Origin: an uncultured Phycisphaeraceae bacterium
Lineage (GTDB): Bacteria > Planctomycetota > Phycisphaerae > Phycisphaerales > Phycisphaeraceae
Assembly (NCBI GenBank): GCA_964425365.1
Contig: CAYRND010000001.1
Location: 1,708 to 65,707, forward strand
Direction: 5' to 3'
DNA length: 64,000 nucleotides
Under the pieces are notes generated by a model that saw only the letters and a list, made by a program, of their open reading frames with translations, had not been told where the DNA came from and did no database searches. Positions 4,926-57,489 of the stretch are shown here, one piece after another. How positions within the stretch are numbered: position 1 is the first letter of the stretch; each line of letters opens with the position of its first letter. A program made the position numbers and the translations under genes.

Positions 4926-5168
4926 TCAGATGTGCAGGATCATATTAAAGAGGATGAAGTTGAGCAGCACGGCGGCGACTGAGATGAGTCCGGCCAGCAG
5001 CAGGCCGCCGAGATACTGCAGCGGCCGACTCATGCGGATGAGCGGCAGTCGCCGGGTATCGGGAACCTTACCCTGCTGGATCAGTTCCTGTTCGAACTGT
5101 TCTGCGGCGAGCAGTTGCTGCTCTAATTCGAGACGTCTTATCCGGCTGTCGGTATCGTAATCGGGCAT
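4926..5168 (-). CDS. Small tail-anchored membrane protein with an N-terminal coiled-coil-like segment, function unknown
   Basis: 80 aa. RIRRLELEQQLLAAEQFEQELIQQ is followed by the TM segment LQYLGGLLLAGLISVAAVLLNFILF. Its ATG shares one nucleotide with the TGA of the upstream Wzz-like gene (TGATG at 5170-5166). Confidence 0.5.
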   Translation of the reverse strand: MPDYDTDSRIRRLELEQQLLAAEQFEQELIQQGKVPDTRRLPLIRMSRPLQYLGGLLLAGLISVAAVLLNFILFNMILHI

Positions 5169-9289: not shown

Positions 9290-9295
9290 GATGAT

Positions 9296-10513: not shown

Positions 10514-10525
10514 GGCGTTTTCGTT

Positions 10526-14165: not shown

Positions 14166-15031
14166 GGCATTGCGTGTACTCGTGTCATCAGCGATTCGAA
14201 CGCCGCCGGGGTACATTCGTAAAACGCCTCGAAGTATCCTCTGCCGCGTCCGAAATAGATCGATCGGTATGCAGACAGTCCTTCCATTGCACGGATGTAA
14301 TCAATTCGGCGGGTCTGGCTTTCGAAGCATGCGAGTGCCTCTCGCTTACGGTCGATCAGGTTGCCGATATCAATCAGTCTGTTGGCGTGCAGCGGCGACC
14401 AGACTTCGTATCCGCGAAGCAGGCAATTGTTTGTCCGGCTCAGGCCGGCAATGTGCAGGGCGGCGGCGAGAATGCGATTCGTCGTCCAGTGATCGTCATG
14501 GCTGTCCATGACGGACGGATGGTAGATCAGTTGCGGCTTGTGCTGTGAGAGCCACCGGGCCAGTGTCTGGATGTATTGTTCCGTGGGTGCCAGATTTCCG
14601 TCGGGTCCGTCGAGGAAAACCAGTTCGTTGATATCCATCACACGAGCTGCGTTGTGAGCTTCCTGTTTGCGGGTACGTATCAGTGCCTTTTCAGCCTGGT
14701 GGATGGCCGATTCGGCCAGGTTGGTTGTGTACAGGTCGGGATCGCCTTTCGATCCATCGGTCAGGTAGATGACGGTGACGGCCGCGCCGGCCTGCCGGTG
14801 ATGCATGACGGCGCCACCGCAGCCGATGGTTTCGTCATCCATATGCGGCGCGAGGACAAGTACGGTATTCGCATGGAATTGAGAGATCATAACGGGCGGC
14901 TTATCGCGTTCATCGAGCAGCAGAGCCAGCCGGATATGGTTCTTAACGCCCCGCGGCACGAGCGTGCGGTAAGTTAATCGAACCAGGATTCGCAGCAGTC
15001 GTTTCATCGTCTTTTCGTGGTCATCTATCAA
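14162..15031 (-). CDS. PIG-L / LmbE family N-acetyl-sugar deacetylase
   Basis: VLAPHMDDETIGCGGAV (the AHPDDE-type metal site), and a second motif SVMDSHDDHWTT (HxDH). Confidence 0.8.
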   Translation of the reverse strand: MIDDHEKTMKRLLRILVRLTYRTLVPRGVKNHIRLALLLDERDKPPVMISQFHANTVLVLAPHMDDETIGCGGAVMHHRQAGAAVTVIYLTDGSKGDPDLYTTNLAESAIHQAEKALIRTRKQEAHNAARVMDINELVFLDGPDGNLAPTEQYIQTLARWLSQHKPQLIYHPSVMDSHDDHWTTNRILAAALHIAGLSRTNNCLLRGYEVWSPLHANRLIDIGNLIDRKREALACFESQTRRIDYIRAMEGLSAYRSIYFGRGRGYFEAFYECTPAAFESLMTRVHAMP

Positions 15032-15045: not shown

Positions 15046-15849
15046 TCAGTACTGGGCGAGTGTGCCTGTCATTTTGGTGTACTGCACTGCGAGGTAGAAA
15101 CTCGTCAGTGCCAGCGGCAGGAGGACGGCGGCGAACAGGAGCAGGATGAGCAACTGTGGAATCAGAGACGCCGTCGATGCTCCTGTAAGCAGTGCCAGCC
15201 GCATACCCTCGAGGCCGTGTGTAATCGGGATCAGCTTCGAGAGCACCTGCATGAATTCGGGCATCAATTCGATCGGGTACATCACACCGCCGAGGATAAG
15301 CGAGGCGATAGAAAGCAGGATATTGAGCATTTCGCCCCGCTTGATGACGACGATCAGGCTGGCGGAGATCATGCCGAACGATGCGAAGCTGAGGATGCTC
15401 AGCAGCAGGATAAGCATGGCGGCCGGAATATTAGCGCCCTGGATATCCAGGCCGAAAAGCAGTCCCACCAGGATATACAGTATGAAACGGACTGTGGTTT
15501 GAACATAGACGTACAGCGAGGAGTAAATCAGGACTTTCGTCAGTGATGTCGGCGAAAGGAGTACGATTTCAAGTGTACCCATGAGCTGGCTGTCTCGCAT
15601 GCTCTGGTTGAATGTCCGCAAGCTGACTGAGAGGTAATCGAGGAACGCGATTCCGATGAGCAGGAAGGCGAAGTAGTTACCGTCGTAGCGATCGAGGAAG
15701 CTGGAATCGGACGATGCGAAGAGTTTACCGAAGAAATAGAAAACCGGAACCGACGCGAGGATATACAGGACCTGCAGAGCGAAGGCCGTGCGATAGCTGA
15801 CGGCGATGAAGAAATCACGTTTCAGAAACGCCAGTGGCAATCTGATCAT
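15046..15849 (-). CDS. ABC-2 type transporter permease
   Basis: 267 aa with six predicted TM helices. It has a 4-nt overlap with the upstream ATPase gene. Confidence 0.8.
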   Translation of the reverse strand: MIRLPLAFLKRDFFIAVSYRTAFALQVLYILASVPVFYFFGKLFASSDSSFLDRYDGNYFAFLLIGIAFLDYLSVSLRTFNQSMRDSQLMGTLEIVLLSPTSLTKVLIYSSLYVYVQTTVRFILYILVGLLFGLDIQGANIPAAMLILLLSILSFASFGMISASLIVVIKRGEMLNILLSIASLILGGVMYPIELMPEFMQVLSKLIPITHGLEGMRLALLTGASTASLIPQLLILLLFAAVLLPLALTSFYLAVQYTKMTGTLAQY

Positions 15850-16892
15850 TCTGTTTCCTCCGTTTCCCGTTTACGATTCTCCTGCCCGATCAGGTAGTGG
15901 AAGATATTATCGAATGACAGTTCTATTTCACTGCAGTGCAGGAGGTCTCCGCCGCTTTCGATGACGGTGCGAATGAACTGTGCGAATCCGTCGGACTGGC
16001 GTTTGAAGCTGACCTGAAGCTCGACGGCGCCGTTTCGGCCGCCGATCTGAGCGGGCAGTGCTGCATGGCAATCCGCGGCGATTTGTGAAAGTTGATTTTC
16101 AGCGAGTCTGCCGATTCGCAATTCATAGGTCAGGCTGTCATCGACCATTCTTCGCAATTCATCGAGGCTGCCCACGGCGATCATCCGGCCGTGGTTCATC
16201 AGCGCGATACGCTTACAGAGCATCTGTATTTCGTTGAGGTTGTGCGAGGTAACGAGGATGGTGGGATTCCACAGGTCGATGACCTGATCACGAATGATGC
16301 GTACGATTTCCGCGGCGCCGATCGGATCGACGCCCTTGGTCGGTTCGTCCATGAAGAGGATTTTCGGTTTGCTGAGCAGGCCTCTTGCCATTGCCAGTCG
16401 CTGTCGCTGGCCGGTGGAGTAGGCATCAAAGCGTTTATCGGCGATTTGTTCGAGTCCGAGCAGGTTGAACAGTTCATCCATCCACCTGCGTGCATCAGTC
16501 GGGTGAAGATGGTACAGGTCGGCGAAGAACGCCAGGTTCTGTCGTCCGGTCAGTCGCCAGTAGAAGCTCCGTTCGTTACTGGTGACCAGGCCGACGCGTT
16601 TTCGCACGTGGTGTCCTTCCCTGGCGACGTCATATCCGTCGATGGTAGCCGAGCCGGAAGTCGGCAGCAGCATATTGGTGAGTATTTTGATGAGTGTGGT
16701 CTTCCCGGCGCCGTTCGGGCCGACCAGGCCGAATATCTCACCGGCGTGAAGGGCCAGGTCGATTTGATCGACGGCGGTGATTGTTCTTCCGCCGGTCTTC
16801 TTCCGCTGGAAAAGCGAGCCGGACCCATTGAACACGCGTGTCAGGCCGTGGGCCTCGATCAGGTATGCGGGCTGTGCTGATGCTCTGCTCAT
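15846..16892 (-). CDS. ABC transporter ATP-binding protein (DrrA-like, with a C-terminal extension)
   Basis: Walker A GPNGAGKTT, signature YSTGQRQRLAMARGL, Walker B ILFMDEPTKGVD, H-loop TSHNL. A C-terminal extension of about 100 aa is present. Confidence 0.88.
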   Translation of the reverse strand: MSRASAQPAYLIEAHGLTRVFNGSGSLFQRKKTGGRTITAVDQIDLALHAGEIFGLVGPNGAGKTTLIKILTNMLLPTSGSATIDGYDVAREGHHVRKRVGLVTSNERSFYWRLTGRQNLAFFADLYHLHPTDARRWMDELFNLLGLEQIADKRFDAYSTGQRQRLAMARGLLSKPKILFMDEPTKGVDPIGAAEIVRIIRDQVIDLWNPTILVTSHNLNEIQMLCKRIALMNHGRMIAVGSLDELRRMVDDSLTYELRIGRLAENQLSQIAADCHAALPAQIGGRNGAVELQVSFKRQSDGFAQFIRTVIESGGDLLHCSEIELSFDNIFHYLIGQENRKRETEETE

Positions 16893-17698
16893 GATATTTG
16901 TAATTGGTCCTGTTGCATTCTTCTGTTGTCGAAGCAGTCTCTATTCATATCCACTCTCCGGCTCAGGATATCGACATTGTTTTCTTCAGTTTCATAGGCA
17001 AGGCAGGCGGTAAAATCCCTGCATCCGCAGTCAATGGTGTGGAACGCCCATTGGCGGCCGGGTTGATCCGGGTCATTCACCGTGAACTGGTACAGGTCGG
17101 GATTCATGGGAAGTTCAAAGGTGTCAAGGTCTCTGATCAGACCGGTACCCGTGGCCTTGAGATAGGCCTCTTTGCGTGTCCAGCCGGTGAAAAACGCGAG
17201 GTTGTGATCTTTCATGGCATGTAGTTCAATTTTCTCCCCGGGTGCGAAATACCGGTTGATAATCACGTCGTTCATAACGTTGGGATTGATATATTCGATA
17301 TCCACGCCCAGTCGGCGTTTGAGTCTGAATCCCATGATCAGCCTGTTCCGCGAGTGCGATACGTTGAATTGGAGTTCATTTCCCGGCAGGATCGGTTTGC
17401 CGAACCCGGTTTCGTCGAATTGGATTACAGCGGGTTTGATACCGGTGTATTCTGCAATAAGCAGCCGAAGCAGTGTACGTCGGAATATAAAGCGGCGTCG
17501 ATCACGATCAAAGCGGAAGCCGTTTGCCCGGGCGCGTTCCATCTCATCCAGCAGGTTCTGCGGGAACGGTTGCCGATCAGACGTTTCGGGCAGTGAGATG
17601 ATCCACAGATGCACCTGGTTTCTCTTGAGCGGGGCAAAGGCAATGCCCGGTGATTGGATGGCCGTATTGGTGATCACGACAACCTCGCTTCGGTACAC
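16889..17698 (-). CDS. 4'-phosphopantetheinyl transferase, Sfp type
   Basis: GKPILPGNELQFNVSHS, LGVDIEY and FFTGWTRKEAYLKATG. Confidence 0.85.
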   Translation of the reverse strand: MYRSEVVVITNTAIQSPGIAFAPLKRNQVHLWIISLPETSDRQPFPQNLLDEMERARANGFRFDRDRRRFIFRRTLLRLLIAEYTGIKPAVIQFDETGFGKPILPGNELQFNVSHSRNRLIMGFRLKRRLGVDIEYINPNVMNDVIINRYFAPGEKIELHAMKDHNLAFFTGWTRKEAYLKATGTGLIRDLDTFELPMNPDLYQFTVNDPDQPGRQWAFHTIDCGCRDFTACLAYETEENNVDILSRRVDMNRDCFDNRRMQQDQLQIS

Positions 17699-18462
17699 AG
17701 GTTCATGATGGTATGCAGGTCACGGCAGAGGAACTGGAAAAAAAGCTGCAGATCGGATTGAATGAAGAAGTGGTGTCCCGGGAACATGCGTACAGTGAAT
17801 GTTTCAGAAGTCCGTTGTCGCCAGGCATCGACTTCGTCGCGGTCAACCGTATGGTCCTGCAGTCCGCCGTAGGCGAAAATCGGGCAATCCAGAGGGGGAT
17901 GATCCTGATAGGAACAGGTTTCACACAACGTAAAATCGGAGCGTAGAACGGGCAGGATCAGATCGAGCAGTTCACGTGATTGCATGACCTCCTGCGGCGT
18001 TCCCTGAAGACATTGCAGTTCATGAATGAACTCCGGTTCGGGCAGATTTCTCAAGGGCGGCCGGGTATCGGGTTTCTGCGGCGCCCGGCGAGCCGAGACA
18101 ATGAGTCCGGCGGGCATCGTCAGGTTTGATGTATGTATCCGCCGCAACCATTCATATGCCAGCAGGCCGCCCATACTGTGTCCGAAAACGGCGTACGGTT
18201 TATTTTCCCACGGTTGCGGGCAATCTGCCATGAACGATTCGATCAGTTCGTCGGCGCGCTGGACGGGCGGTTCGCTGAACCGGCTCTCCCGGCCGGGCAG
18301 TTGAACGGCGCAGAGTTCGACTTCGGGCGGCAACATCGCCTGCCACGGCCGGAAGAACTGTGCCCCGCCGCCGGCAAAGGGGAAGCAGATCAGTCGCAGC
18401 TTCGCCGCGGGGTTCGGCTTGAATATTTTGAGCCAGCGATGGTGTAGATCGTGGTACGTCAT
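17674..18462 (-). CDS. Type II (editing) thioesterase
   Basis: LICFPFAGGGAQFF, the nucleophile elbow GHSMGG, and the C-terminal FPGHHFF. Confidence 0.85.
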   Translation of the reverse strand: MTYHDLHHRWLKIFKPNPAAKLRLICFPFAGGGAQFFRPWQAMLPPEVELCAVQLPGRESRFSEPPVQRADELIESFMADCPQPWENKPYAVFGHSMGGLLAYEWLRRIHTSNLTMPAGLIVSARRAPQKPDTRPPLRNLPEPEFIHELQCLQGTPQEVMQSRELLDLILPVLRSDFTLCETCSYQDHPPLDCPIFAYGGLQDHTVDRDEVDAWRQRTSETFTVRMFPGHHFFIQSDLQLFFQFLCRDLHTIMNLCTEARLS

Positions 18463-18471: not shown

Positions 18472-20088
18472 TCAGCTTTCTTTCCGTTTCTGATTCAGTG
18501 TCACCTGCAATAGAAGCACTTCGAACGGTGCCAGATCGCAGGATAAGGTGTTACCCCGCACGTCGGTCGGTTTGTCGCGTTTCGTCGAACTGACGGAAAG
18601 TGCACGTATCACTTCGACCCGGTCCGCACCTGTGAACAGCAGTTTGAGCCGGGTATCTTCGTTTTCATGGCGACGATATATTTCCGAAGCTTTTTTGAAC
18701 AATCCGGCGTACGCGGCCGATTCTGTTCGCCCATGCCGCAACGCATGTTCGAGATCAAGCATACTACTGTAGTTGAGAATCACTTCTCGCGGCACCTGCT
18801 GCTGCAACAGGTAGTCGATAGCCGCGGCACCTGCCGCGGAATAACCAGTTGACCATACCGCTATGGTCATTGTGTCGTCCTGTTCCCGTGAAATAACCAG
18901 TCGCCGATCACCCTGTCGACGATATGAGGAAGGAACAGTCATGATGGCGATGCCTTCCGATCTCGTCGCCAGTTCATGGAACATCCGGTGAATGTGGTAC
19001 ACGTTTTTCTTTTCGAGTTTCTGTGAGATCAATCCATAGCCGCTCTGGTCCCGGTTCGGGACGAAATCCTCCCACGCCGCGAATGTCTGTAGATCGACAC
19101 CGGCTTCATAAAGGTCATAAAACGTATCCGCGGCGAGTGCGGCCGACTCTTGAATACCGCGGTATTTTGAAACGTTGTTCCATTCTGAAACGACGAATTC
19201 CGGCAGGTTCTTGAAGCCCAGCTGGCGACATTCCTGCTCATACGAGCGTTTCGCTTTTCCGATCAGTGACCCGGCAAAGCTGCCGAAATGATGCCATGAA
19301 ATAAAGTCCAGCGGCAGGTCATGGCGGTGAGCATAACGGATCAACTCGATAGTCAGCATGTCACGATCAGGATTTCGCTGCACCCGCCCGTTCCAACTGT
19401 TAACCGATGCGCCGCCCACCTTCGCCTGCGGGTCGATTTGTTTAAGGGTGAGTGCGGTTTGCCGGTACAGTTCAAGATAATGGTCGATATCGTCATGCCA
19501 GTAGGAGGTATCCGGCTCGTTCCAGATTTCATAGTAGCGTTCGACCTGTTCGAAATCGCGGAAGAATACGGCGGCGGCGGCCACAATTTCGTTCCACTTC
19601 GCGTAATCCGACGGATGATAGGTGTGGTAATGCCGCCAGTATCCTTCAATGGCCTGTGGGTCGGATGAACTGCTCAGCCATTGTGGCATGAGTGTGACGG
19701 TGATGATAAAAACCTTGTGCACCCGGCTCATGGTATTGAGATAATCACGTCGTTCCTCGAGCTTTTCCTTGAATGACTCGATATCATTCGCCTGCATCAG
19801 GACATATTCAAACGCGCCGTACAGCCTGGCGGCATGGTGATTTTGAAAGTCGGCAAGGTAAAGTCGGGCACTTTCTATTGACCTCGGATTGAGAAACACA
19901 GAGGATCTGAACAGGTCAGTCCGGGTGTTATCGAAAGACAGCCGGTCGAGGTCAATGGCAATGCCATCCGTCACCTTCGGTATCTCCTGCGGTACGGTCG
20001 CCGTTGTCTCGGCCAGGCCGCCGGTTTCACAGCCTGCCAGGCATGCCGGCAAGGCAAGCAGCATCAGAATGTTCAACAATCTTTTCAA
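18472..20088 (-). CDS. Lipoprotein glycoside hydrolase, clan GH-A (GH39 / PslG-like)
   Basis: A lipobox signal MKRLLNILMLLALPACLAGC, the acid/base region YYEIWNEPD, and a candidate nucleophile VVSEWNN. Confidence 0.65.
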   Translation of the reverse strand: MKRLLNILMLLALPACLAGCETGGLAETTATVPQEIPKVTDGIAIDLDRLSFDNTRTDLFRSSVFLNPRSIESARLYLADFQNHHAARLYGAFEYVLMQANDIESFKEKLEERRDYLNTMSRVHKVFIITVTLMPQWLSSSSDPQAIEGYWRHYHTYHPSDYAKWNEIVAAAAVFFRDFEQVERYYEIWNEPDTSYWHDDIDHYLELYRQTALTLKQIDPQAKVGGASVNSWNGRVQRNPDRDMLTIELIRYAHRHDLPLDFISWHHFGSFAGSLIGKAKRSYEQECRQLGFKNLPEFVVSEWNNVSKYRGIQESAALAADTFYDLYEAGVDLQTFAAWEDFVPNRDQSGYGLISQKLEKKNVYHIHRMFHELATRSEGIAIMTVPSSYRRQGDRRLVISREQDDTMTIAVWSTGYSAAGAAAIDYLLQQQVPREVILNYSSMLDLEHALRHGRTESAAYAGLFKKASEIYRRHENEDTRLKLLFTGADRVEVIRALSVSSTKRDKPTDVRGNTLSCDLAPFEVLLLQVTLNQKRKES

Positions 20089-20989
20089 TCGAACGGTCCT
20101 TGTTGAGATACGTCTGCCGGAACCAGTTACTCACGATCCGGCATAGACAATGCTGGTTGGCGAGCAGTGTAAACGTATGGTCGGAATCGGGCACGACTTT
20201 TTGTGTAATGGTACGGCTGTTCAAAAGAGTATCAGACTGATTGCCGAGTATGACATGCAGGTAGTCCAGGCCGCGGTCACCTTCGGAGTAAACCAGCAGA
20301 GTGCGTATATCGCGTTGGATGAGGTTCTGCATCTGTTTCGCGAGGCGATCCGCCACGCTGCCGACCTCTTTACCGGGCAAGATGCGGTTTTTGATCTGCC
20401 TGCCGATTACAGTCAACAGTCGCCGGTACTGAATCCGGCCGGTCAATGCCCGTTTCCAGCTATCGCGAGAGAACAGCGAGCGTTGCCAGTACTGCTTCGA
20501 CCAGTCGCGGTTCATGATGTACATATTCCACTGTCGGGAAGTTTCATATCCCTGCGCGTTCATCATGACGATCCCTGCAACCCGGTCATCCGTACCGGCG
20601 ACTTTGAAGGCGGTGACCGCGCCCGAGCAGATACCCATCAGAACGAACTGCCGACAGCAATGGCGCCGGGCCATGACGTCCATTGCCTCCCGCACTTCCG
20701 CAGCAGCGCTCTGTTCGTAGGGGATATTGTCTTTCCGTACGCCGCTGTCACCGATACCGCTGTGATCGAATCGCAGAACAATTGCACCTGATTCGGCGAG
20801 CATGCGAGCCAGTCTGACATACAATCGTGCCGGGCCGACGCGGTGGACCATACCTGCGTTGAGCAGAATAACACAGGGCGGACAGCGATCGTTCGAACCG
20901 CTATCGGGTTCGGTGATGGTGCCGATCAGGTTATGCGGCTCACTGAATACGATACGCTGCTCATTCACCGGTTCGTCTCCTTCATCCAC
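20027..20989 (-). CDS. Alpha/beta-hydrolase-fold protein with Cys at the nucleophile elbow (GICSG)
   Basis: ILLNAG (oxyanion region), RFDHSGIGDSG, and the elbow LMGICSGA with Cys121 encoded by TGC at 20629-20627. It overlaps both neighbouring genes. Confidence 0.7.
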   Translation of the reverse strand: MDEGDEPVNEQRIVFSEPHNLIGTITEPDSGSNDRCPPCVILLNAGMVHRVGPARLYVRLARMLAESGAIVLRFDHSGIGDSGVRKDNIPYEQSAAAEVREAMDVMARRHCCRQFVLMGICSGAVTAFKVAGTDDRVAGIVMMNAQGYETSRQWNMYIMNRDWSKQYWQRSLFSRDSWKRALTGRIQYRRLLTVIGRQIKNRILPGKEVGSVADRLAKQMQNLIQRDIRTLLVYSEGDRGLDYLHVILGNQSDTLLNSRTITQKVVPDSDHTFTLLANQHCLCRIVSNWFRQTYLNKDRSIEKIVEHSDAACLAGMPGRL

Positions 20990-21813
20990 TGGACAATGGC
21001 GGCGATCGCCTGCCGAGGTACGACGGCCTCGAACGGTTCAGCCAGCCAGATGCGTGAATCGGAAAGCTGACGGTATGCAAGTCGTGTTCCGCGTTGTTCC
21101 AGATGCGGCTTTAGCGCTGACGGCCCGGCCTCATCCGCGGTATCCAGCAGAAGGACCTGCGAAGCCGGGGGTGCGTTGATTTCATGGACCAGGTCGATCG
21201 CCTGGATATCATCGATCAGTCCGGAGGTGAAGTCGAATCCCATGATTTCTTCAGTGCGTCCGTCGCCAATACCGTTATCATTTATTCGGCCGGGGTCTCC
21301 GAAGCGTTTGAGCTGCGCCGCATGTTGCGGCCGGACCTGGTTGAACCATTCTTCACCGCGTAGTACGGGATCCCAAAGTACCATCTGTAGCGGTGGCGGG
21401 CCGTGCATGGCGGCCATTGCGGCAAATGTTGCGCCCAGTCGTATGCCGATTACCGTGCATGGTTGCTGTTCTGAGAGTGCGGCAAGGGTTCGTCCGGCGG
21501 TATGGATATCAATGATCCACTGTTGCACGCCAGCCTGCTTGTGTTCGCCCTCGGAATCGCCGCAGCCGAAGTAATCGAAACGCATCACGCCGAATCCTGC
21601 GGCGGCAAGCTGCAGGGTCAACTGCTTCAGTGCCCGGTAACAGCGGATATATTCGTGACCCGCCGGATGACAGATCAGCACACTCCGGCCGCATTCGGAC
21701 CCGGTGCGAGGGGGATGGAAGCAGCCGAACAGGCGGTATCCCGACGCTAGTATCTCGACCGGCCTGATGTCGGCTGATGTGTGTTCACAGGTTGGTGATA
21801 TCATATCGTGCAT
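20965..21813 (-). CDS. Alpha/beta-hydrolase-fold protein with Arg at the nucleophile elbow (GIRLG); a likely pseudo-enzyme or non-canonical member
   Basis: ICHPAGHEY, RFDYFGCGDSEG, and the elbow VIGIRLGAT with Arg125 encoded by CGA at 21441-21439. Confidence 0.7.
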   Translation of the reverse strand: MHDMISPTCEHTSADIRPVEILASGYRLFGCFHPPRTGSECGRSVLICHPAGHEYIRCYRALKQLTLQLAAAGFGVMRFDYFGCGDSEGEHKQAGVQQWIIDIHTAGRTLAALSEQQPCTVIGIRLGATFAAMAAMHGPPPLQMVLWDPVLRGEEWFNQVRPQHAAQLKRFGDPGRINDNGIGDGRTEEIMGFDFTSGLIDDIQAIDLVHEINAPPASQVLLLDTADEAGPSALKPHLEQRGTRLAYRQLSDSRIWLAEPFEAVVPRQAIAAIVQWMKETNR

Positions 21814-21835
21814 GGCAGTCCGTTATTATGATCGA

Positions 21836-24800
21836 TCAGTGTGACGGCGTCACCCGTTCGGTTTTTTCTCCAGTAACCATTTTCCGAATGGCGGCCAGCA
21901 TGGCCCTTGCCTTTTTTCCGGTGCCCGCGGCCTGTTTTGTTTCACGCAGATTATCGCATTGGGCAGCGACCTGGCTGAGGTTCTGCAGCATCAGTTCCAT
22001 CGGGTTCAGTTTGACACCTGCCTGCTCCTGCAGTTTAGCGACGACCTCCATAGCCAGCAGTGAATGGCCGCCCAGATCGAAGAAGTTGTCATGGCGCATC
22101 ACGTGTGATATGCCAAGTACCTGCTGCCATATTCCGGCGAGCAGTATTTCCATTTCCGATTCAGGCGCGGCGGACGTACCGTGGGCGTCAACCGGTCGGT
22201 GATGATCGGCGGGGCGGGGCAGTGCCTCGCGATCCACTTTACCGTTGGGCGTAAGCGGCATGTGATCGAGTATCATGATCGTTGCCGGGACCATATATGC
22301 CGGTAGCCGGTCTTTCAGGTACTGTCGAAGCATCTCACTATCATGAACATTCCCATTATCACCGACCACGTAACCGGTCAGTCTTCTGTCGCCGGGTTTA
22401 TCTTCACGTACCTGGACAACGGCTTCGCTTACTTGTTCATGTTCGAGTAGTACGGCTTCGACTTCACCCGGTTCGATTCGGAATCCCCTGAGTTTGACCT
22501 GGTTATCCATCCGGCTGATAAAGATCAGTTCACCGTCTGCCCGTCTGCAGACGAGGTCACCGGTGCGGTATAGTCGTTGCGATCCGTTCAGTCCGGGTAA
22601 GGCGACACGGACGAATTTCTCAGCGGTCAGTTCATCGCGGTTCAGGTAGCCGGTCGCCAAGCCGTCGCCGCCGAGGTACAACTCGCCGGGCACCCCGACG
22701 GGTACAGGGCGTTGATGTTCGTCGAGCACATAGGCAGTGGTATTGGCAATCGGCCGGCCGATGGGTACGGTCGTGGCATCATCGTCGACCTTGTTGATTT
22801 CATACCAGGTACTGAAGGTAGTGTTTTCAGTGGGGCCGTAGACGTGCAGAAGCCGAGCGGGTTTTCCGCCGGCCAGTACGCGTCTGACACTACCGGGGTC
22901 GACGGCCTCGCCGCCGAAGAGGACATGTTTGAACCCGGCGAAGACCGATACCTGCTCACGAGCCATCAGGTTGAACATAGCCGTGGTCAGAAACAGGGTG
23001 GTCACACCCGCTTCCTGCAGTGCTGAAGCGAATTCGCCGGGTGAGAGAATCTGTTCCTGATCGAATATCACCAGTCGTGACCCGTTCAGCAGAGCCCCCC
23101 ATATTTCAAAGGTCGCCGCGTCAAACGAGCAGTTGGAAACCTGTGCGACACGGTCCGAACCGGTTAGTTGAATATAATCGGTTTCGCAGACCAGCCGGAC
23201 GACCCCGCGATGCGGCACACAGACTCCCTTCGGCCTGCCAGTCGAGCCCGAGGTATACATGATGTAGGCCGGGTTATCACCGCCTGTTTCATTGTGGCGT
23301 GTGGTGCTGTATTGCGAGGTGATGGCCGATGACTCGCGGTCCAGACACACAAGCCTGACATGATCCGGAGCCGGGCGCTGCCACAACGACTCTCGTGTGA
23401 TCAGGATCGCCGCATGTGAATCCTCGATCATTAACCTCTGTCGCTGTTCGGGATAATCCGGGTCCAGCGGAATGTAGATGCCGCCCGCCTTGAGAATGCC
23501 CAGCATCGCCACCACCATATCAATCGAGCGATCCAGCGCGATTGCCACCGGCGTGCCGGTGGTCACGTTCAGCGACTGGAGGTATCTCGCCAGTTGATCG
23601 GTTTTCGCTTCCAATTCACCATAGCTGACCTGGTCATTGCCGTGTACGATTGCGATCGCATCAGGGTGCGATTCGGCCCGGCGAGTGAAAAGGTCGGGGA
23701 TGCCGACCTTACGCGGATAATCCGTAGCGGTGTGGTTCCATTCAGTGATGACCTGTTCATATTCACTGTCACTCAACATTGTCAGTTCACGCACCGGAGC
23801 GGAGGGATTCGATACGATCGATTCCAGCAGATGGTGATAGTGTCCGAGCATCCGCTGAATGGTCGAGGCATCGAACAGGTCTGTGTTGTAGGTTATTGTG
23901 ACCACTAGCCCGTCGTCCCGGTCCCACACCTGCGCTTCAAGATCAAAGCGGACTGTCTCGCATTTGATCATCATTTTGCGTAAGGACAGGCCGACCAGAT
24001 CGAGCGGTTCCATGGGAGCGTTCTGGAGTGCGAAGGTCATTTGAATGAGCGGACTGCGGCTGAGATCACGCTGCAGGCCGAGTGATTCGACAAGTTTTTC
24101 GAACGGCATGTCCTGATGACTGTAGGCATCGAGTGTGGTTTTGCGAACACGTTGCATGAGTTCGATAAACGGCCGCTCGGGATCGATCTGTGTTCGCAGG
24201 ACCAGCATATTGACGAAGAATCCGATGAGTCCCTCTATTTCCGAGCGGTTCCGGTTAGCCACCGGCGAGCCGGTGATGATATCATTCTGGCGAGCGTAAC
24301 GGTGCAGGAGCACCTGGAACGCGGCGAGCAGCGTCATGAAGAGCGTGGTCTGTTCACGCCGGCTGAGTTGTTTGATTGAATCCGACAGTTTTTTCGGCAG
24401 TATGTAACTCTCCCACTCGCCGTTGAAAGACTGTACCGCCGGGCGAGGGTGATCGAGCGGCAGTTCCAGAACGGGCAGTTCTCCGGATAGTTGTGATCGC
24501 CAGTAACCGAGTTGTCTTTCGAGTTCATTACCGCTGAGCCATTGACGCTGCCAGATCGCGAAATCCGCATATTGGATGGGCAGCGGTGACAGCGTCGTTG
24601 ATCCGCCGCGGGCATACGCTTCGTACAGGACCGTCAGTTCATTGAACAGTATCCCCAGTGACCAGCCGTCGGATGCAATGTGATGCATTGTGATCAGCAG
24701 AATGTGATGGTCCGTCGAGAATCGCATCAACTGCACGCGAAGCGGGTAGTCACGCGTCAGGTCGAACGGTTGAAAAGCCGCCTCGTTGATGAATCGCTGC

Positions 24801-27800
24801 GATTCCAGGTCACGATCAGCCGGTGCGATATGGCTCATGTCGATGACCGGCATATCGATCACGTCGATCGCATCGATGATCTGTACGGGTTTACCGCCCT
24901 CGTGTCTGAACCGGCTGCGAAGTGTTTCATGGCGCGTAATAATCCGGTTGACGCTTTTCTGGAGTGCATCGAGATCGAGTTTGCCTTCGAGTCCCATGGC
25001 CATGGGGATGTTGTAAACGGGGTTATCCGGCTCCATCTGGCTGATGAACCACAAACGCTGCTGGGCGAATGAGAGGGGTGCGGTATTGCCGCGTTCCACC
25101 GGTACGAGCGGGGGCGTGTCCGAAGAGTCTTGTTCTCGCTGGAGAGAGCAGAGCAGGTCGGCGAACCCGGCGATTGTGGGGCGTTCGAACATTCGAGCGA
25201 CGGGTATGGAGACGTTGAAAGTGTCATTGACGCGGCTGATGACCTGGGTAGCCATGAGCGAATGGCCGCCGATATTGAAGAAGTGATCGTGGATACCGAT
25301 CGTATCCCGGCCGAGCACCTCGGTCCATATTTCCGCCAGTCCTCGCTGGATCGGTGTCTGCGGCTCCACGTATTTCATGCTAGCTTGCGCGGGTTCTGTG
25401 GATTCGATGCGACTTAATGCCTGCCGGTCGATTTTACCGTTCGGCGACAGGGGCATCTGTTGGATCTGAATCCACGACGAAGGCACCATGTAATCGGGAA
25501 GTTGCCTGGCCGCGTATGTCCGAATGCCGTCTTTGTCGAGTGGTCTGTCGTCTGCGGGTACAAGGTATGCGACCAGCCGTTTATCGCCGGGCGATTGTTC
25601 CTGCAGGATAACCGCCGCCGCAGCTATCGCGTGATGCTCGATGAGGATCGATTCGATTTCACCGGGTTCGATCCGGAACCCTCGGAGTTTGATCTGATTA
25701 TCACGCCGCCCGCCGAATTCGAGATTCCCATCCGTCAATCTGCGGACGCGGTCACCGGTTTTGTAGAGCCGAGCGTTTTCTCCGTGACGGAACGGATCTG
25801 TCACAAACCGCTGCCGGGTCAGTTCAGGCTGGTTGAGGTACCCGATCGCAACGCCGTCCCCGCCGATATACAACTCACCCCAGACCCCGGCCGGGACCGG
25901 CTGCAACCGGTCATCGAGCACGTAGGCCGTCGTATTGGCAATCGGCCGGCCGATGGGTATCGCGTTGACGTTGTCCGGCAATGCGGCCGGTATCCTGTAA
26001 CAGCATGCGAATGTGGTGCATTCCGTCGGGCCGTAGCCGTTGATCAGTTGTGTCTGAGGCAGATGTGCCAGTGCCCGTCGGATATGCGGCACAGACAAAG
26101 CTTCGCCGCCTGTGAGTAGCTGTCGGATCGGTCTGAATATCTCCGGCGACTCCGTGATCAGCAGATTGAACAGCGACGCGGTCAGCCACAAGGTATTGAC
26201 GCCGTGGGTTTGTATGACATGCCCCAGTTCTTTACTGTCTGGTACGCGGGCCGGATAAATAACACAACGTCCGCCGTGTAACAGAGCGCCCCACAGTTCG
26301 AACGTCGAGGCGTCGAACGAAATCGGCGCAAGTTGCAGGATCACCTGCTCAGGTCCGAGTTCAGCGTAATCCTCACCGATTACCAGGCGGACGACCCCGC
26401 GATGCGGGACGATCACGCCTTTTGGTCTGCCCGTCGAGCCCGAGGTATACATGATATACGCAGGGTCATCGCCGGTGACCGTTACGCCCGGATCATCGAT
26501 CGGCATATCAGCCTGTTCATCCCTGTTGAGGTCCAGCACGAATACTTCCAGCGTATCGTTGAACTCGCCTAGTGCGGATATGAGTTGTGAATGACTGATG
26601 AGGACGGGCGGTTTGATATCAGCCAGGATCATTTTTAGTCGTTCGGCCGGATAGCCGGCATCAAGCGGCACGTACACGGCGCCTGCTTTCAATATCGCCA
26701 GAATCGTCACCGGGACGTCCGTGCCGCGATGCAGCATGAATCCGACCCTGTCGCCCGGCCGGACGCCATATTCGATCAGGCGGTGCGCCAGTTGGTTCGC
26801 CTGTTCATTCAAGTTACGGTAAGTAAGCTGCTGCCGGCCGCAGATGATCGCCACGGCATCGGGGACCCGTTTTGCCTGCTCTTCAAACAGGCTGTGAATC
26901 GAGGCGTTGCGGGGGTAGTTGACGGTATTCACGGCCAGGTCATGGGTCAGACGGTGATGGTCCGACGGGTCCAGCAGTTCAAATGTGTGCAGCGGCCGGT
27001 CCGGATCAGCCGCGATCCCTGACAGCAGCGTTTCGTAGTGGCGCAGCATACTTCGGATGGTCGATGCGTCGAACAGGTCGGTGTTGAATTCCACTTGGGC
27101 GGTCAGCCCGTCGTTCAGGTCATAAAGGTAAAAGGAAAGGTCGAACTTTGCGGTTCGCGTATCCGACCGGACGTGTTCAAAAGTCAGGCCGTCGAATCCC
27201 GATGATTCCCCGCGACTGCTTTCCAGGGTGAACATGGTCTGAAAAAACGGTGTCAGGTTCGCCTGTCGCGGCGGCTGCAACTGCTCGACCAGCATTTCAA
27301 ACGGAACGTGCTGATTCGCATGCGCCTCCAGCAGGATGCGTCTGACATGTTTCAATAGTTCACGGAAGGACATTTCAGGTGTAAAACGGTTGCGCAGCAC
27401 CAGGGTATTTACAAAGAACCCGATCAACCCTTCCAGTTCGATGCGGTTGCGATTGGCGACCGGAGAGCCGATGGTGATATCGGTCTGGTTCGTATAACGA
27501 TAGAAAAGCAGGTTCAACGCCGCCAGGCACGTCATGAACAGTGTTGCGCCTTCACTTCGGCTGATGGCTTTGAGTGCCCGGATAATCTCGGCGGGTATGA
27601 GATATTCGACGAAGTCGCCGTCGAATGTCTGTACCGCCGGGCGTGGCCGGTCCGTCGGCAGTTCGAGTAACGCCGGATGATCTGCGAGTTGCTTTCGCCA
27701 GTACACCAGTTGTCGATCCAGCACCTCGCCGGTCAGCCATTGGCGCTGCCAGCATGCGTAATCCGGGTATTGTACGGCCAGCGGTTGCAGTGTTATCTGT

Positions 27801-28504
27801 TTTCCGGCAATCAGCGAATTATAGATTACTGATAACTCGCCCATGAAGACGCTGAATGACCAGACGTCGAAAATAATATGATGGAATGTCAGGTAAAGAA
27901 TGCATTCCGCTTGATTCACCTGCAGTAAGGCGCACCGCAGAAGCGGGCCGCTTGCCAGATCGAACGGCGAACGGGCTTCACGCGAGGCGTATCGCCGTAT
28001 CTCCCACTCCTGTTCATCCGGAGGCAGATGCCGGATATCCGTGATCGACAGGTGAAATTTCTGCGGCGGTGAAATAACCTGAACAGGTGTACCGCCTTCC
28101 GATTCGAAACGCGTACGCAGTATCTCATGACGATGGATCATCGCATTCAGGCTTCGCTCGAACACGCCGATATCAAGCCGGCCTGTAACGCGATACACCA
28201 CGGGGATGATGTATGCGGTACTGCCCGGCTCGAGCTGTTCGAGGAACCACAGGCGCTGCTGGTTGAGTGACACCGGCATCCGCGGGTTGCGATCGTACCG
28301 TTCGACGGGCGGGACAATGAAGGTTTCGCCCACAGGGGTCCTCTGCTTTAAATAATCGAGCAGTTCCGTCTTGCGATCCGCCAGTTGCTGCCGGATCGAT
28401 TCGGTGATTGCGCCCCTGGGGGCATTGCACTTCAGCCTGTCACCGTCGGCCGACAGCCTGATATCGAGCGATTTCAGATGTGATAGAAATTCGCTCGTGG
28501 TCAT
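21836..28504 (-). CDS. NRPS, two modules: TubC-like N-terminal docking domain-C-A-T-C-A-T; no release domain
   Basis: Docking domain MTTSEFLSHLKSLDIRLSADGDRLKCNAPRGAI. C motifs HHIIFDVWS and HHIASDGWS. A motifs YIMYTSGSTGRPKGV (twice), YKTGD/YRTGD and PNGKxDR. T motifs GGHSL (twice). The protein ends about 70 aa after the last carrier Ser. Confidence 0.95.
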   Translation of the reverse strand: MTTSEFLSHLKSLDIRLSADGDRLKCNAPRGAITESIRQQLADRKTELLDYLKQRTPVGETFIVPPVERYDRNPRMPVSLNQQRLWFLEQLEPGSTAYIIPVVYRVTGRLDIGVFERSLNAMIHRHEILRTRFESEGGTPVQVISPPQKFHLSITDIRHLPPDEQEWEIRRYASREARSPFDLASGPLLRCALLQVNQAECILYLTFHHIIFDVWSFSVFMGELSVIYNSLIAGKQITLQPLAVQYPDYACWQRQWLTGEVLDRQLVYWRKQLADHPALLELPTDRPRPAVQTFDGDFVEYLIPAEIIRALKAISRSEGATLFMTCLAALNLLFYRYTNQTDITIGSPVANRNRIELEGLIGFFVNTLVLRNRFTPEMSFRELLKHVRRILLEAHANQHVPFEMLVEQLQPPRQANLTPFFQTMFTLESSRGESSGFDGLTFEHVRSDTRTAKFDLSFYLYDLNDGLTAQVEFNTDLFDASTIRSMLRHYETLLSGIAADPDRPLHTFELLDPSDHHRLTHDLAVNTVNYPRNASIHSLFEEQAKRVPDAVAIICGRQQLTYRNLNEQANQLAHRLIEYGVRPGDRVGFMLHRGTDVPVTILAILKAGAVYVPLDAGYPAERLKMILADIKPPVLISHSQLISALGEFNDTLEVFVLDLNRDEQADMPIDDPGVTVTGDDPAYIMYTSGSTGRPKGVIVPHRGVVRLVIGEDYAELGPEQVILQLAPISFDASTFELWGALLHGGRCVIYPARVPDSKELGHVIQTHGVNTLWLTASLFNLLITESPEIFRPIRQLLTGGEALSVPHIRRALAHLPQTQLINGYGPTECTTFACCYRIPAALPDNVNAIPIGRPIANTTAYVLDDRLQPVPAGVWGELYIGGDGVAIGYLNQPELTRQRFVTDPFRHGENARLYKTGDRVRRLTDGNLEFGGRRDNQIKLRGFRIEPGEIESILIEHHAIAAAAVILQEQSPGDKRLVAYLVPADDRPLDKDGIRTYAARQLPDYMVPSSWIQIQQMPLSPNGKIDRQALSRIESTEPAQASMKYVEPQTPIQRGLAEIWTEVLGRDTIGIHDHFFNIGGHSLMATQVISRVNDTFNVSIPVARMFERPTIAGFADLLCSLQREQDSSDTPPLVPVERGNTAPLSFAQQRLWFISQMEPDNPVYNIPMAMGLEGKLDLDALQKSVNRIITRHETLRSRFRHEGGKPVQIIDAIDVIDMPVIDMSHIAPADRDLESQRFINEAAFQPFDLTRDYPLRVQLMRFSTDHHILLITMHHIASDGWSLGILFNELTVLYEAYARGGSTTLSPLPIQYADFAIWQRQWLSGNELERQLGYWRSQLSGELPVLELPLDHPRPAVQSFNGEWESYILPKKLSDSIKQLSRREQTTLFMTLLAAFQVLLHRYARQNDIITGSPVANRNRSEIEGLIGFFVNMLVLRTQIDPERPFIELMQRVRKTTLDAYSHQDMPFEKLVESLGLQRDLSRSPLIQMTFALQNAPMEPLDLVGLSLRKMMIKCETVRFDLEAQVWDRDDGLVVTITYNTDLFDASTIQRMLGHYHHLLESIVSNPSAPVRELTMLSDSEYEQVITEWNHTATDYPRKVGIPDLFTRRAESHPDAIAIVHGNDQVSYGELEAKTDQLARYLQSLNVTTGTPVAIALDRSIDMVVAMLGILKAGGIYIPLDPDYPEQRQRLMIEDSHAAILITRESLWQRPAPDHVRLVCLDRESSAITSQYSTTRHNETGGDNPAYIMYTSGSTGRPKGVCVPHRGVVRLVCETDYIQLTGSDRVAQVSNCSFDAATFEIWGALLNGSRLVIFDQEQILSPGEFASALQEAGVTTLFLTTAMFNLMAREQVSVFAGFKHVLFGGEAVDPGSVRRVLAGGKPARLLHVYGPTENTTFSTWYEINKVDDDATTVPIGRPIANTTAYVLDEHQRPVPVGVPGELYLGGDGLATGYLNRDELTAEKFVRVALPGLNGSQRLYRTGDLVCRRADGELIFISRMDNQVKLRGFRIEPGEVEAVLLEHEQVSEAVVQVREDKPGDRRLTGYVVGDNGNVHDSEMLRQYLKDRLPAYMVPATIMILDHMPLTPNGKVDREALPRPADHHRPVDAHGTSAAPESEMEILLAGIWQQVLGISHVMRHDNFFDLGGHSLLAMEVVAKLQEQAGVKLNPMELMLQNLSQVAAQCDNLRETKQAAGTGKKARAMLAAIRKMVTGEKTERVTPSH

Positions 28505-31500
28505 ATCTCGATCTCCTCGCGGTCACCAACGGATTGTTCGACCGGCTCTGCATCTGTTTCCGCATGCGATGATGGCGGGCGCAGGCGTTCGGCCAGCTTC
28601 GATACAGTCGGCATTTCAAACAGGCTCGCAATTGGAAGCTCAACACCCAGGTTCTTACGCAGTCTCGAAATGATCTGTGTGGCGACAAGAGAATCGCCGC
28701 CCAGTTCAAAGAAATCGTCGTGCCTGCCGATCCGGTTGATGCCGAGCAGTTCCTGCCACACCTGCGCGATAGCGAGCTCCAATTCATCCCCGGGTGCCAC
28801 GTATTCCGTTTCCAGCTCGGGACGATCATGCGAACTCGATCCTGATCCTGTATCGCGTTCGAATTGATCGAATGCCCGTTCGCCGCCGGATGAGTTGAGT
28901 ATATCCAGGCGGTGGTTGAAATCGTACGTTGATACGTATACCTGGCTGATACCGCCATCGAGAACGCGGTGGAATACTTCCATGCCTTCCGACGGCTGGA
29001 TGCCTTTGTTCAGGATCGCCGATTCCGTATCGTCCGGTTTGACCCCAGCATGATGGACCTGCGAGCGCATCGACTGCTGATCGAAGCGATCCAAGTCGAT
29101 CAGTCTCAGGGTGTAGCCGTCGAGTTCGATTACGACTGAACCTTTCTCATCCGTGACGACAATATCGAATTCCAGGGTTTCGTCACCGCCGTGCTGGGTC
29201 TGCGAATAGGTAATGTGACTGACGACTTTCGCCGGCATCGATTTCATGATCCGAACGCGTTTATACATGAACGGCAGATATTGGTGTTCGCCACGCACCC
29301 GGGTGAGCATGAAGGCCGTGGCGACGTCCAGCGTTGCCGGGTGCAGCAGATAATCATCGATATCAGAATGATACGATGATGGTAATGTCACAAAGGCGAT
29401 TCCTTCACCGTCTCGCATATGTACATGCGAGTTGCATTGCCATCTGGGACCGAACTCGACCAACCCGGTCTTTCTCGTATGCTGATGTTCCGTTGTGACG
29501 GCTTCGTCAGTGTTGCACCTGGACCGGATCGCATTGATATCAAGCTTTCGATTCGAAGGCAGGTTGAGTATCTCAACGCTTCCCTTGAAGTGCTCCACCC
29601 ACGGCTCGCCGCCTGATTCCGGACGGCTCATAATGACGAACTCGCTTGTTCCCGATTTACCAGGCGAAATCACGGTATGCACGGTTCGAGGCACATCCGG
29701 TTCTACAACAAGCGGCCTGAGATAATATACATCGCTCAGTTCAACAGGCCGGCCGGCGTCCGTTCGTGCATAGGCCTCCCGGATCATCTCGATATAGGTC
29801 GTACCCGGCAGGATTGATTTGCCGCTGATCCGATGTTCATTCAATACCCATTGTTTGTCGATGGTAAACGTAGAAACGTGAATAACGGATCCATCGTTAT
29901 CCTGATAACGGTGTTCGAAGAGCGGATGATCGACCGTCTCAATTTCACGTTGGACTTGGGTGCGGTCACGTGTCGCCGTCGATGCAAGTTGTCTGACCGC
30001 CTGCACCGCCATGCCGACTTCCTGCCACGTGTCCCAGCCGATGGATAACACCACGGGGCCCCGGCTGCTGTTCTTCAAGCCGGCGTAAGCGTCGAGGAAG
30101 GCGTTGGCCGATGTGTATGCCACCTGGCCTGTCGGCCCGAAGACTGATGACAGCGAAGAACAGAGTATCATGAAATCCGGCGGCATATCACGCAGCAGGC
30201 GTTCGAGCACAAACGTACCCGCCAGCTTCGGTCTGAGCACGGTATCTGAAACAGCCCTTGATCTAGCCTGTATCACGGCGCCGTCCGGGACACCGGCGGA
30301 ATGGATGACACCGTTGATATGACCGAATCGCTCGACGACTTGCGATACCACTTCCCGCATTCGCGTTTCGTCGGCGATATCCGCCTGAACCACCATTACC
30401 TCGCCGCCGGCCTGCTCGATCGCCAGGAGTTTGAGAATCCGGTCACTTGCAGGATCGTTCGGATCGTGATTGTCGAGCCAGTCTCGCCACTCATCCGGTT
30501 GCGGAAACGCCGATCGGCCGATCAGCACGAGCCTGGCGCGGCATGTATCTGCGAGATACTTTGCCAGAGTCAAGCCGATCCCGCCGAGACCGCCGGTGAT
30601 CAGGTATACGCCGTTATCACGGAGTGAGGCGGCCCGGCCATTGCCGGTCGGTTTGATCGGTAATGCGTCGAAACCCTGTACCCAGCGATGCCGGCCGCGA
30701 TAGGCGATGATATCGTCGTCGTCATCACGATGGCTCAATTCCCGAAGCAGCCGTTGTGCATTGTCCTGATGATCCGCGGGTGACCAGACCATGTCGATAT
30801 CCACACTGCGGCATTGGACATTCGGATATTCACGGGGAATGACCTTGCACGGGCCGAGCAACGTTGCATTGATGGGGTAGAGCAGATCGCCTCCGATTAC
30901 TTCCTGCATATTATTGGTTACCACCAGAATCCGGATATCCGGTTGATCATCCAGTTTGCCCAGTGCCTGTGCCAGACAAATCAGGCTGTGATAACCTGCT
31001 TCCAAGGCGAATTGTAATGCCTCATCATCATGGCCGGGACTGTTCGTTGTCAGCGACCACAGATGCACAACCCGGTTCGGCGGGCTGCCGTTTTCACGGA
31101 TGGCGTCGATCAGTGAGATATAATCTTCACTTTCGGCGGGATTGATCTCGAATTGATTATGACTGACCTGGGTAAAGCGATTGCCGCGATTAACGGTATA
31201 TACCCTGTGGCCTTCGTCGCGCAGTCTGGTTATCAGGTCATCAGCCAGGCCGCAGGTATCTGAGAAGACCAATACATCATCATTGTCATGATCGGTTGTA
31301 CTGTCGACGCCATTAAGCGGTAGGGCGCGTCGTTTCCAGTTCGGTACGTAAAACCACCTGGAAAGGTCCGGGTCCTTTTCGGTCGACACGGTTATTGCTT
31401 TCTTCTGCTCCCGATTGCCTGTTGGCTCGATCCAGAATCGCTTTCGTTCGAACGGGTAAGTCGGACAGGCGACGCGGTACCGGGCTTCATGCTGGTAAAA

Positions 31501-49740: not shown

Positions 49741-49806
49741 GGTTCTGACTCACCTCGTTAGTCTGGTTCGGTGTGGGGGAATCGGGTGTCGGAGTGTTAG
49801 CGAATT

Positions 49807-50310: not shown

Positions 50311-50326
50311 CGATGTAACAGGGCAT

Positions 50327-50776: not shown

Positions 50777-50939
50777 AAAATTCCGCTCCAACCGGTTACG
50801 GGTGGTCCGGGATGTTCCCGAGTTGTCCGGGAGTCCGGGAGGCGGCCGGGCCGCAACCCCGAATCTCTGTATCAATTTACCATCCTAACCGGAGAGGGTA
50901 TGGCCGTAAAATGTCGGCGTGATGCGTGGATGAATGAGT

Positions 50940-57445: not shown

Positions 57446-57489
57446 TCTGTATCACGCGGAGAGATTGGATGGTTGGGAGGGAGCGTTCA

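Follow-up and report, generated by a model that had tools for sequence, protein, structure and literature searches.

Results

A terminal synthetase without a release domain

We analysed 64,000 nt of DNA, hereafter the window, from an uncultured Phycisphaeraceae bacterium (assembly GCA_964425365.1, contig CAYRND010000001.1, positions 1,708 to 65,707 of the forward strand). In the window, an assembly line of six nonribosomal peptide synthetase (NRPS) modules and one polyketide synthase (PKS) ends at a carrier domain and is followed directly by two overlapping genes for proteins of the alpha/beta-hydrolase fold. Chain release fixes the final structure of nonribosomal peptides, and we ask here how this assembly line might release its product. 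The first of the two genes, hydr2, encodes Arg at the position of the catalytic nucleophile; the second, hydr1, encodes Cys. All coordinates are window positions, and the genes and features in question are the following, in the order in which they are read:

40780..47220, minus strand: NRPS1, 2146 aa, N-terminal C-like (starter) domain followed by A-T-C-A-T (Pfam, motif map)
34100..40783, minus strand: NRPS2, 2227 aa, TubC-type dock followed by C-A-T-C-A-T (Pfam)
28501..34095, minus strand: PKS, 1864 aa, KS-AT-KR-DH-ACP (Pfam)
21836..28504, minus strand: NRPS3, 2222 aa, the terminal synthetase, dock followed by C-A-T-C-A-T (Pfam)
21935..22147, minus strand: final carrier (T) domain of NRPS3, with the phosphopantetheine (Ppant)-bearing Ser2148 (codon TCA, 22063–22061)
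20965..21813, minus strand: hydr2-like pseudo-hydrolase, 282 aa, with Arg125 at the nucleophile elbow
20027..20968, minus strand: hydr1-like Cys hydrolase/acyltransferase, 313 aa, starting from GTG at 20968

In the three NRPSs, the only domains that Pfam recognizes are C, A, T and TubC-dock. It finds no PF00975 thioesterase (TE), no reductase and no extra terminal C domain in NRPS1, NRPS2, the PKS or NRPS3, which bears out what a first-pass annotation of the window had stated from the letters. In the motif map, each of the four megasynthases stops shortly past a carrier motif. The last carrier motif of NRPS3 reads LGGHSL, and the protein ends (...VTPSH, then the stop codon) 74 aa beyond Ser2148, where about 70 aa had been estimated; the gap to hydr2 is 22 nt. 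Across 59 loci of relatives, the tail of ~70 aa past the last T domain is conserved neither in sequence nor in length, which argues against a docking role for this segment of NRPS3. In the PKS, KR (aa 1162–1359) precedes DH (aa 1390–1666), an order found in polyunsaturated-fatty-acid-type or enediyne-type iterative PKSs and not in canonical modular ones.

A Cys elbow paired with an Arg elbow

The elbow motif of hydr1 is MGICSGA, and profile alignments to solved esterases place its Cys114 (TGC, 20629–20627) on the nucleophile Ser of GLSMGG. Together with Asp231 (GAC, 20278–20276) and His264 (CAT, 20179–20177), Cys114 makes up a putative triad. In the AlphaFold2 (AF2) model of hydr1 (mean confidence, pLDDT, 88.4), Cys114 lies at a strand–turn–helix elbow, the residues Cys114, His264 and Asp231 follow strands 108–113, 254–259 and 222–228, respectively, and a helical lid of four helices spans aa 145–218. 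The gene most likely begins at GTG 20968 rather than at 20989, judging from the sequence around it: this start gives a 4-nt GTGA overlap with the TGA stop of hydr2, has AAGGAG ~7 nt upstream and reproduces exactly the 313-aa database protein P0001. Overlap of the two genes had been recognized in the first-pass annotation; its start at 20989 is superseded, and the residue that it numbered C121 is therefore C114.

We searched 1.84 billion representatives exhaustively with hydr1, using HMMER with no word index, and obtained 3,446 clusters (50% identity) with E up to 1e-30. The elbow Cys is present in 120/120 of the best hydr1 homologues. Residues were counted in 132 best-hit representatives of this search that are mutually ≤50% identical: 129 have Cys at the elbow, two have Ser and one has His; 127/132 keep His264, and 107/132 have Asp or Glu at the acid position. 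Since one pattern of the species-genome scan described below contained G[LI]CSG, the set from that scan is Cys-biased, and 129/132 is the unbiased figure. Ser at the elbow also occurs in three of the mapped loci (L019, L032, L038), and such rare Ser variants point to a nucleophile role of this position.

An invariant HRVGP loop (aa 42–46, window 20845–20831) lies after strand 3 of hydr1, where the oxyanion hole of alpha/beta hydrolases sits. It is the sole segment of the AF2 model with pLDDT <50, and the model suggests that it may become ordered only upon partner or substrate binding.

The elbow motif of hydr2 is IGIRLGA. Arg125 (CGA, 21441–21439) aligns with the nucleophile Ser of GFSLGG in solved esterases and lies at a strand–turn–helix elbow in the AF2 model (pLDDT 89.8), so that coordinates, profile alignments and models agree with the first-pass placement of Cys and Arg at the two nucleophile elbows. 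The Arg is found in 52/53 hydr2 homologues and in ~73/75 loci (72 as aligned by tblastn, and L023 after a one-residue shift). L030 has Trp instead, a Shinella fusion protein (L089 9092–10900) has Gly, and none of the variants seen carries a canonical Ser or Cys nucleophile. At the canonical triad positions, hydr2 homologues lack a conserved His, and no acid is clearly conserved, which confirms the earlier statement that a canonical triad is not available to the Arg protein. A nucleophile–His–acid set at canonical positions is found in hydr1 and is missing in hydr2, which, as far as its residues tell, is a catalytically dead alpha/beta hydrolase.

A sister clade of TIGR03100 and TIGR03101

The top NCBIfam match of hydr1 is TIGR03100 (116.2 bits, E 1.6e-33, profile positions 4–273 of 274; curated cut-off 168.45), and that of hydr2 is TIGR03101 (89.1 bits, E 3.4e-25; curated cut-off 202.75). 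Both families are hypothetical equivalogs in NCBIfam and uncharacterised. The first-pass annotation had described them as an invariable pair next to an acyl-CoA ligase and an acyl carrier protein (ACP). They are indeed the top matches and the predicted pairing holds, but both scores fall below the cut-offs. Every relative that we scored also fell below them, and we therefore regard the window pair as a sister clade rather than as members of TIGR03100/TIGR03101. Proteins named ‘exosortase A-associated hydrolase 2’ by JGI likewise stay below the cut-off, at 100–115 bits, and are located in PKS–NRPS loci. With Pfam, the two proteins match PF12146 (Hydrolase_4) at 40.3 and 35.9 bits (gathering threshold 27), and neither matches PF00975 or PF01738; a precomputed PF01738 match exists for the homologue P0123.

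The likeness to TIGR03100/TIGR03101 is one of profile scores and neighbourhood. In both cases two diverged alpha/beta hydrolases form an obligate adjacent pair, in the window as adjacent genes with the 4-nt overlap, and the pair occurs with a set of genes for carrier-protein activation and in polysaccharide loci. The window differs in the partner, which is a six-module NRPS plus one PKS where TIGR03100/TIGR03101 have an acyl-CoA ligase and ACP: NRPS/PKS genes take the place of the neighbourhood of TIGR03098 ligase, ACP and TIGR03099, and no exosortase or PEP-CTERM match was found with Pfam and NCBIfam among the open reading frames (ORFs) scanned in the 64-kb window. The earlier proposal that the megasynthase stands in for the ligase/ACP is sustained by the same pair occurring elsewhere beside ACP/ligase sets and beside terminal T domains.

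In Sinorhizobium meliloti pSymB and Aureimonas pAU20a, TIGR03098 and TIGR03099 genes are present and the hydrolase pair is absent. Their exopolysaccharide (EPS) clusters contain a genuine TIGR03098 ligase, a TIGR03099 decarboxylase and a carrier protein (L091 7968–11998; L092 8059–11759). In both, the gene immediately before the ligase encodes a hypothetical protein of ~290 aa; a 281-aa hypothetical protein has a similar place in Shinella (L089 11056–11901).

Foldseek and PDB sequence searches returned generic esterases and lipases for both proteins. Foldseek gave probability 1.00 and TM scores of 0.5–0.7, and neither a PhaC nor an acyltransferase is among the 50 matches listed for each protein. 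The one TE listed, 3qit_B of curacin, ranks 45th for hydr2 and was also matched weakly (E 0.0026) by PDB sequence. Hydrolase_4/S33-type esterases are the closest solved relatives of both proteins (PET46 8b4u, MHETase MHT043-5 9pjb, TTL lipase 7q4h, feruloyl esterases); the RFDxxGxGDS and HR motifs are common to these enzymes and the pair, and both paralogues apparently descend from such esterases. Those esterases are single-chain Ser hydrolases acting on small esters, whereas the long four-helix lid is hydr1's own.

Pairing and natural fusions across species

A pattern scan of one genome per species of the Genome Taxonomy Database (GTDB) yielded at least 515 relatives, and we mapped 80 loci from more than ten phyla, including Acidobacteriota, Planctomycetota, Chloroflexota, Gemmatimonadota, Pseudomonadota, Myxococcota, KSB1, Zixibacteria and Rokubacteria. 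A scan of genome contigs with a single protein had found no relatives; the alignment-based scan found them. Because antisense ORFs were called spuriously in high-GC loci, neighbourhood statistics draw solely on plus-strand ORFs and tblastn mapping, and counts of genes downstream of the pair are lower bounds.

hydr2 lies directly upstream of hydr1 in 72/80 species loci. Of the 62 loci whose flank is long enough, 50 have a T-domain match that ends <450 nt before hydr2, too close for a TE to fit in between, and a PF00975 thioesterase occurs within 4 kb of the pair in only 14/62. The neighbourhood survey that had been suggested for homologous pairs thus returns both the pairing and the adjacent T domain.

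In nine loci (L015, L020, L025, L028, L036, L038, L046, L049, L058), one reading frame continues from the last T domain into hydr2. These in-frame fusions span four lineages; A and T domains are followed by hydr2 as the C-terminal domain, at the very place of a TE, with GxRLG kept. Two loci depart from the common order: in L001 (9971–13623) the T domain is followed by hydr1, with hydr2 placed after an ABC transporter, and in L051 (6750–10945) the T domain is followed by hydr1 and a type II thioesterase (TEII), with no hydr2 within 10 kb.

Fusions of hydr2 to hydr1 occur on plasmids and chromids of cultured bacteria, and the Arg half always comes first. Elbow motifs are GLRAG ... GICSG in Mycetohabitans rhizoxinica (WP_013428943.1), GIRAG ... 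GICSG in Burkholderia gladioli (WP_013700104.1) and GVRAG ... GICSG in B. cenocepacia. Further examples come from Azospirillum and Shinella and from the proteins P0379, P0395 and P0423, and P0397 is a tandem double copy. Taken as sequence evidence, the fusions suggest a Rosetta-stone chain of T domain, Arg protein and Cys protein.

The neighbours of these fused genes vary. The Azospirillum and Mycetohabitans fusions adjoin genes for an ACP, an acyl-CoA-dehydrogenase-like protein, an amino acid–[ACP] ligase, DUF1839 and GH2. The Shinella fusion lies in an EPS cluster with an ACP and an AMP-ligase (TIGR03098, 566.8 bits; cut-off 592.35) and a pyridoxal-phosphate-dependent decarboxylase (TIGR03099, 413.1 bits; cut-off 478.45). 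In B. gladioli and in the Bep cluster of B. cenocepacia, the neighbours are Wzx, Wzy, Wza, Wzc, acyltransferase and glycosyltransferase genes; the B. cenocepacia fusion, Bcam1334, has been annotated as TIGR03100 (PMC3584217). Another setting of the pair is a PKS with a single NRPS module, and L085, like L084, is a minimal PKS–NRPS–hydr2–hydr1 operon with no sugar genes nearby. A loaded carrier protein appears to be the common denominator of most of these contexts, as read from gene content, with a polysaccharide pathway as a frequent companion.

A co-directional gene string and its link to glycans

Between 47220 and 5168, from NRPS1 through Wzz, the window carries one co-directional string of genes whose spacing ranges from −71 to +65 nt. 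Downstream of hydr1 it consists of:

18472..20088, minus strand: GH39-like lipoprotein with signal peptide and lipobox LAGC
17674..18462, minus strand: stand-alone thioesterase (PF00975, E 2e-44; GHSMGG, Ser codon AGT, 18177–18175)
16889..17698, minus strand: Sfp/HetI-type phosphopantetheinyl transferase (Pfam/NCBIfam)
15046..16892, minus strand: ABC ATPase and ABC-2 permease (DrrAB/Wzm-Wzt-like exporter)
14162..15031, minus strand: PIG-L family de-N-acetylase (BshB1/MshB-like)
8102..14216, minus strand: four GT4 glycosyltransferases (12906–14216, 11590–12939, 9296–10513, 8102–9289)
10526–11596, minus strand: 356-aa gene with no assigned function, between GT4 genes
5168..8036, minus strand: Wzy_C (O-antigen ligase/polymerase-like) and Wzz (chain-length determinant-like), the end of the string

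The GH39-like gene and the 3′ end of hydr1 share 62 nt, and a GH39-like lipoprotein also stands beside the pair in L002, L004, L006 and L046. The thioesterase gene overlaps the phosphopantetheinyl transferase gene by 25 nt; its stand-alone PF00975 protein, which the first-pass annotation had overlooked although it is the obvious rival for chain release, is probably a type II editing TE. The PIG-L enzyme could expose a sugar amine.

Much of this gene order recurs in the Phycisphaeraceae locus L002, which shows the best synteny. Elsewhere, genes for Wzx-type flippases, sulfotransferases, glycosyltransferases, Bac_transf proteins and polysaccharide deacetylases lie downstream of the pair, and GT4 matches occur within 10 kb of it in ~15/80 loci. 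L014 lacks an NRPS, and its pair is found among Wzy_C, GT4, arylsulfotransferase-like and GH129-like genes. The published Bep EPS was extracted with 0.3 M NaOH; by our own reasoning alkali would strip esters, so its structure cannot settle whether there is an ester-linked decoration.

Just upstream of NRPS1 lie genes for a GH36 alpha-galactosidase, DUF6941 and RpiB (47608–50875, minus strand), so that with the GH39 lipoprotein, glycoside-hydrolase-like genes stand on both sides of the assembly line; GH2, GH129-like and GH43-like genes adjoin the pair elsewhere (L086/L090, L014 and L066, respectively). Towards the ends of the window, a gene at 1012–1821 (minus strand) combines an N-terminal methylation motif with DUF1559 (SBP_bac_10), a combination typical of Planctomycetota, and a defence- or mobile-element-like region at 51909–61889 (plus strand) encodes an SNF2 helicase, Bro-N, Schlafen/AlbA_2, a protein with no assigned function, an N6_N4 DNA methylase and RhuM.

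Discussion

We propose that hydr2 and hydr1 constitute a two-component off-loading module that replaces the TE, with a glycan sugar as the most likely acceptor at this locus, and we favour this reading, if guardedly. Its parts differ in strength: the pair acts in off-loading from a carrier with high probability, while a non-water, sugar-type acceptor is a possibility that we would place a little short of even. The proposal builds on what is observed: which residues are present and how well they are conserved, the fold, the order of the genes, natural fusions of three kinds and an association with carrier proteins that keeps recurring.

We infer a Cys-thioester intermediate, a role for the Arg and an acceptor as follows. 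hydr2 would hold the TE slot after the last T domain and, as an adaptor on the side of the assembly line, would recruit hydr1. Cys114, activated by His264 and Asp231, would attack the peptidyl-S-phosphopantetheine thioester of the last T domain, and the finished lipopeptide–polyketide chain would be carried as a thioester on Cys114 until an acceptor resolves the acyl-enzyme. In the window, this acceptor could be a sugar hydroxyl, or an amine freed by the PIG-L enzyme, of a glycan built and exported by the products of the co-linear PIG-L, four GT4, Wzy-like, Wzz-like and ABC-2 genes, with water as a fallback. The transfer would take place in the cytoplasm. Arg125 might (i) bind the Ppant phosphate, (ii) bind an anionic acceptor or (iii) be purely structural.

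The nine in-frame T–hydr2 fusions give strong support to the off-loading role, and here the first-pass annotation, which had cast the pair as a transferase moving the chain to a non-water acceptor, has gained ground; for the acceptor itself, its claim does not go beyond gene context.

Several points weigh against the proposal. Only gene order and fusions speak for a hydr2–hydr1 complex that contacts the T domain, and the literature that we searched offered neither biochemical data on any member nor a study of the pair, the sole mention that we found being the annotation table that lists Bcam1334. The Foldseek matches are generic. hydr1 and hydr2 have no signal peptide, so the acceptor must be reachable in the cytoplasm, and the Trp (L030) and Gly (Shinella) replacements at the hydr2 elbow imply that the role of Arg may be structural. 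Operons of the L085 type indicate that a sugar acceptor is not universal and that hydrolysis or cyclisation may be the default. The TEII in the window could itself release the chain, and plain hydrolysis would also be open to an enzyme with a Cys nucleophile.

Some of these points lead to the closest alternative, in which the pair releases the chain but the Cys enzyme hydrolyses or cyclises it, with water or an internal nucleophile as acceptor, and the glycan genes serve either to glycosylate the freed lipopeptide afterwards or in a pathway of their own. We consider this unlikely. It would account for the minimal operons L085 and L084 without glycan genes nearby, for esterases and lipases as the nearest solved relatives, and for GT4 genes within 10 kb in no more than ~15/80 loci. 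Cys-His-Asp hydrolases such as dienelactone hydrolase exist, and the first-pass assertion that a Cys nucleophile favours acyl transfer over hydrolysis has to be reduced to a tendency. With water as the acceptor, however, the near-absolute preference for Cys over Ser (129 versus 2 of 132) has no explanation, the pair is also found inside EPS clusters without an assembly line, and beside single ACP/ligase sets hydrolysis would merely reverse activation.

Release could instead be the task of the PF00975 thioesterase (17674–18462), with the pair as a tailoring or polysaccharide-modifying esterase or acyltransferase acting off the carrier. Its gene lies two genes downstream of the pair, such a gene recurs beside the pair in 14/62 loci, and the pair occurs in polysaccharide loci without a nearby carrier protein (L014; Bcam1334). 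On the other side, type II TEs are usually editing enzymes, as is well established, and the TEII is absent in 48/62 loci, whereas a terminal T domain is adjacent in 50/62. This adjacency and the in-frame fusions of hydr2 to the T domain argue strongly against such a division of labour, which we regard as improbable, and equally against proofreading. The latter, in which the pair would perform the type II TE job of clearing mis-primed or stalled carriers, could draw on the many kinds of carrier protein linked to the pair and on separate proteins acting in trans, but is highly improbable given that it would be redundant beside the true TEII of the window and of 14 loci, that the pair is tied to, and fused at, the last T domain specifically, and that the assembly lines ahead of it have no other release domain.

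The proposed off-loading module can be set beside three known systems. Cys-nucleophile NRPS TEs include those of obafluorin and sulfazecin. A further one, the sorangibactin TE, has a Cys nucleophile and releases its product by an intermolecular amino-acid nucleophile (PMC10127202). The pair shares with these enzymes the alpha/beta-hydrolase fold, the slot after the last T domain and Cys in place of Ser. They are single cis PF00975 domains, while neither protein here matches PF00975, the catalytic site is predicted to lie on a protein of its own, and a nucleophile-less paralogue would hold the TE slot. Like type II TEs, the pair consists of trans-acting alpha/beta hydrolases of NRPS/PKS clusters with carrier-bound thioesters as (here predicted) substrates; type II TEs are PF00975 proteins with a Ser nucleophile and monomeric, and the window encodes a genuine one separately.

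The third comparison is with class III/IV polyhydroxyalkanoate (PHA) synthases, in which PhaC, with Cys-His-Asp in a GxCxG box, needs the non-catalytic PhaE or PhaR, and the acyl group passes from a thioester to a hydroxyl via a Cys-thioester. PhaC is a mechanistic analogue only: the pair has no PhaC match in Pfam, just as PhaC is missing from the 50 Foldseek matches listed for each protein. In the pair, unlike PHA synthases, the partner is itself a dead paralogue, and the thioesters would be those of carrier proteins, not of CoA. Trans-acting and Cys-type release enzymes are already known kinds; what appears to be new is a widespread two-component release with a dead paralogue in the TE slot that extends over three carrier-loading systems and glycan loci.

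‘TE-less’ clusters are a recurring puzzle of genome mining, and the pair is a concrete candidate for a widespread release system. The proposal is also the first functional hypothesis for families that, since their definition, have been annotated just as ‘exosortase A system-associated hydrolase 1/2’. It further links the pair to operons of aminoacyl-tRNA-synthetase-like amino acid–[ACP] ligases, for which we know of no downstream chemistry.

In its broadest form, the proposal would have the pair, TIGR03100/TIGR03101 included, graft acyl groups, aminoacyl groups or whole NRPS–PKS chains onto sugars of nascent polysaccharides, and the window would encode a lipopeptide-decorated glycan; we put this forward tentatively and hold it to be doubtful. 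If the acceptor is a glycan, peptide- or lipid-decorated exopolysaccharides would be expected in many uncultured phyla, and the pair would offer a transferase for making such conjugates. If such grafting holds true, glycan-anchored products would come from hundreds of TE-less NRPS clusters in Planctomycetota, Acidobacteriota, Chloroflexota and further groups, and the lipopeptide-decorated glycan would represent a class of conjugates without earlier description.

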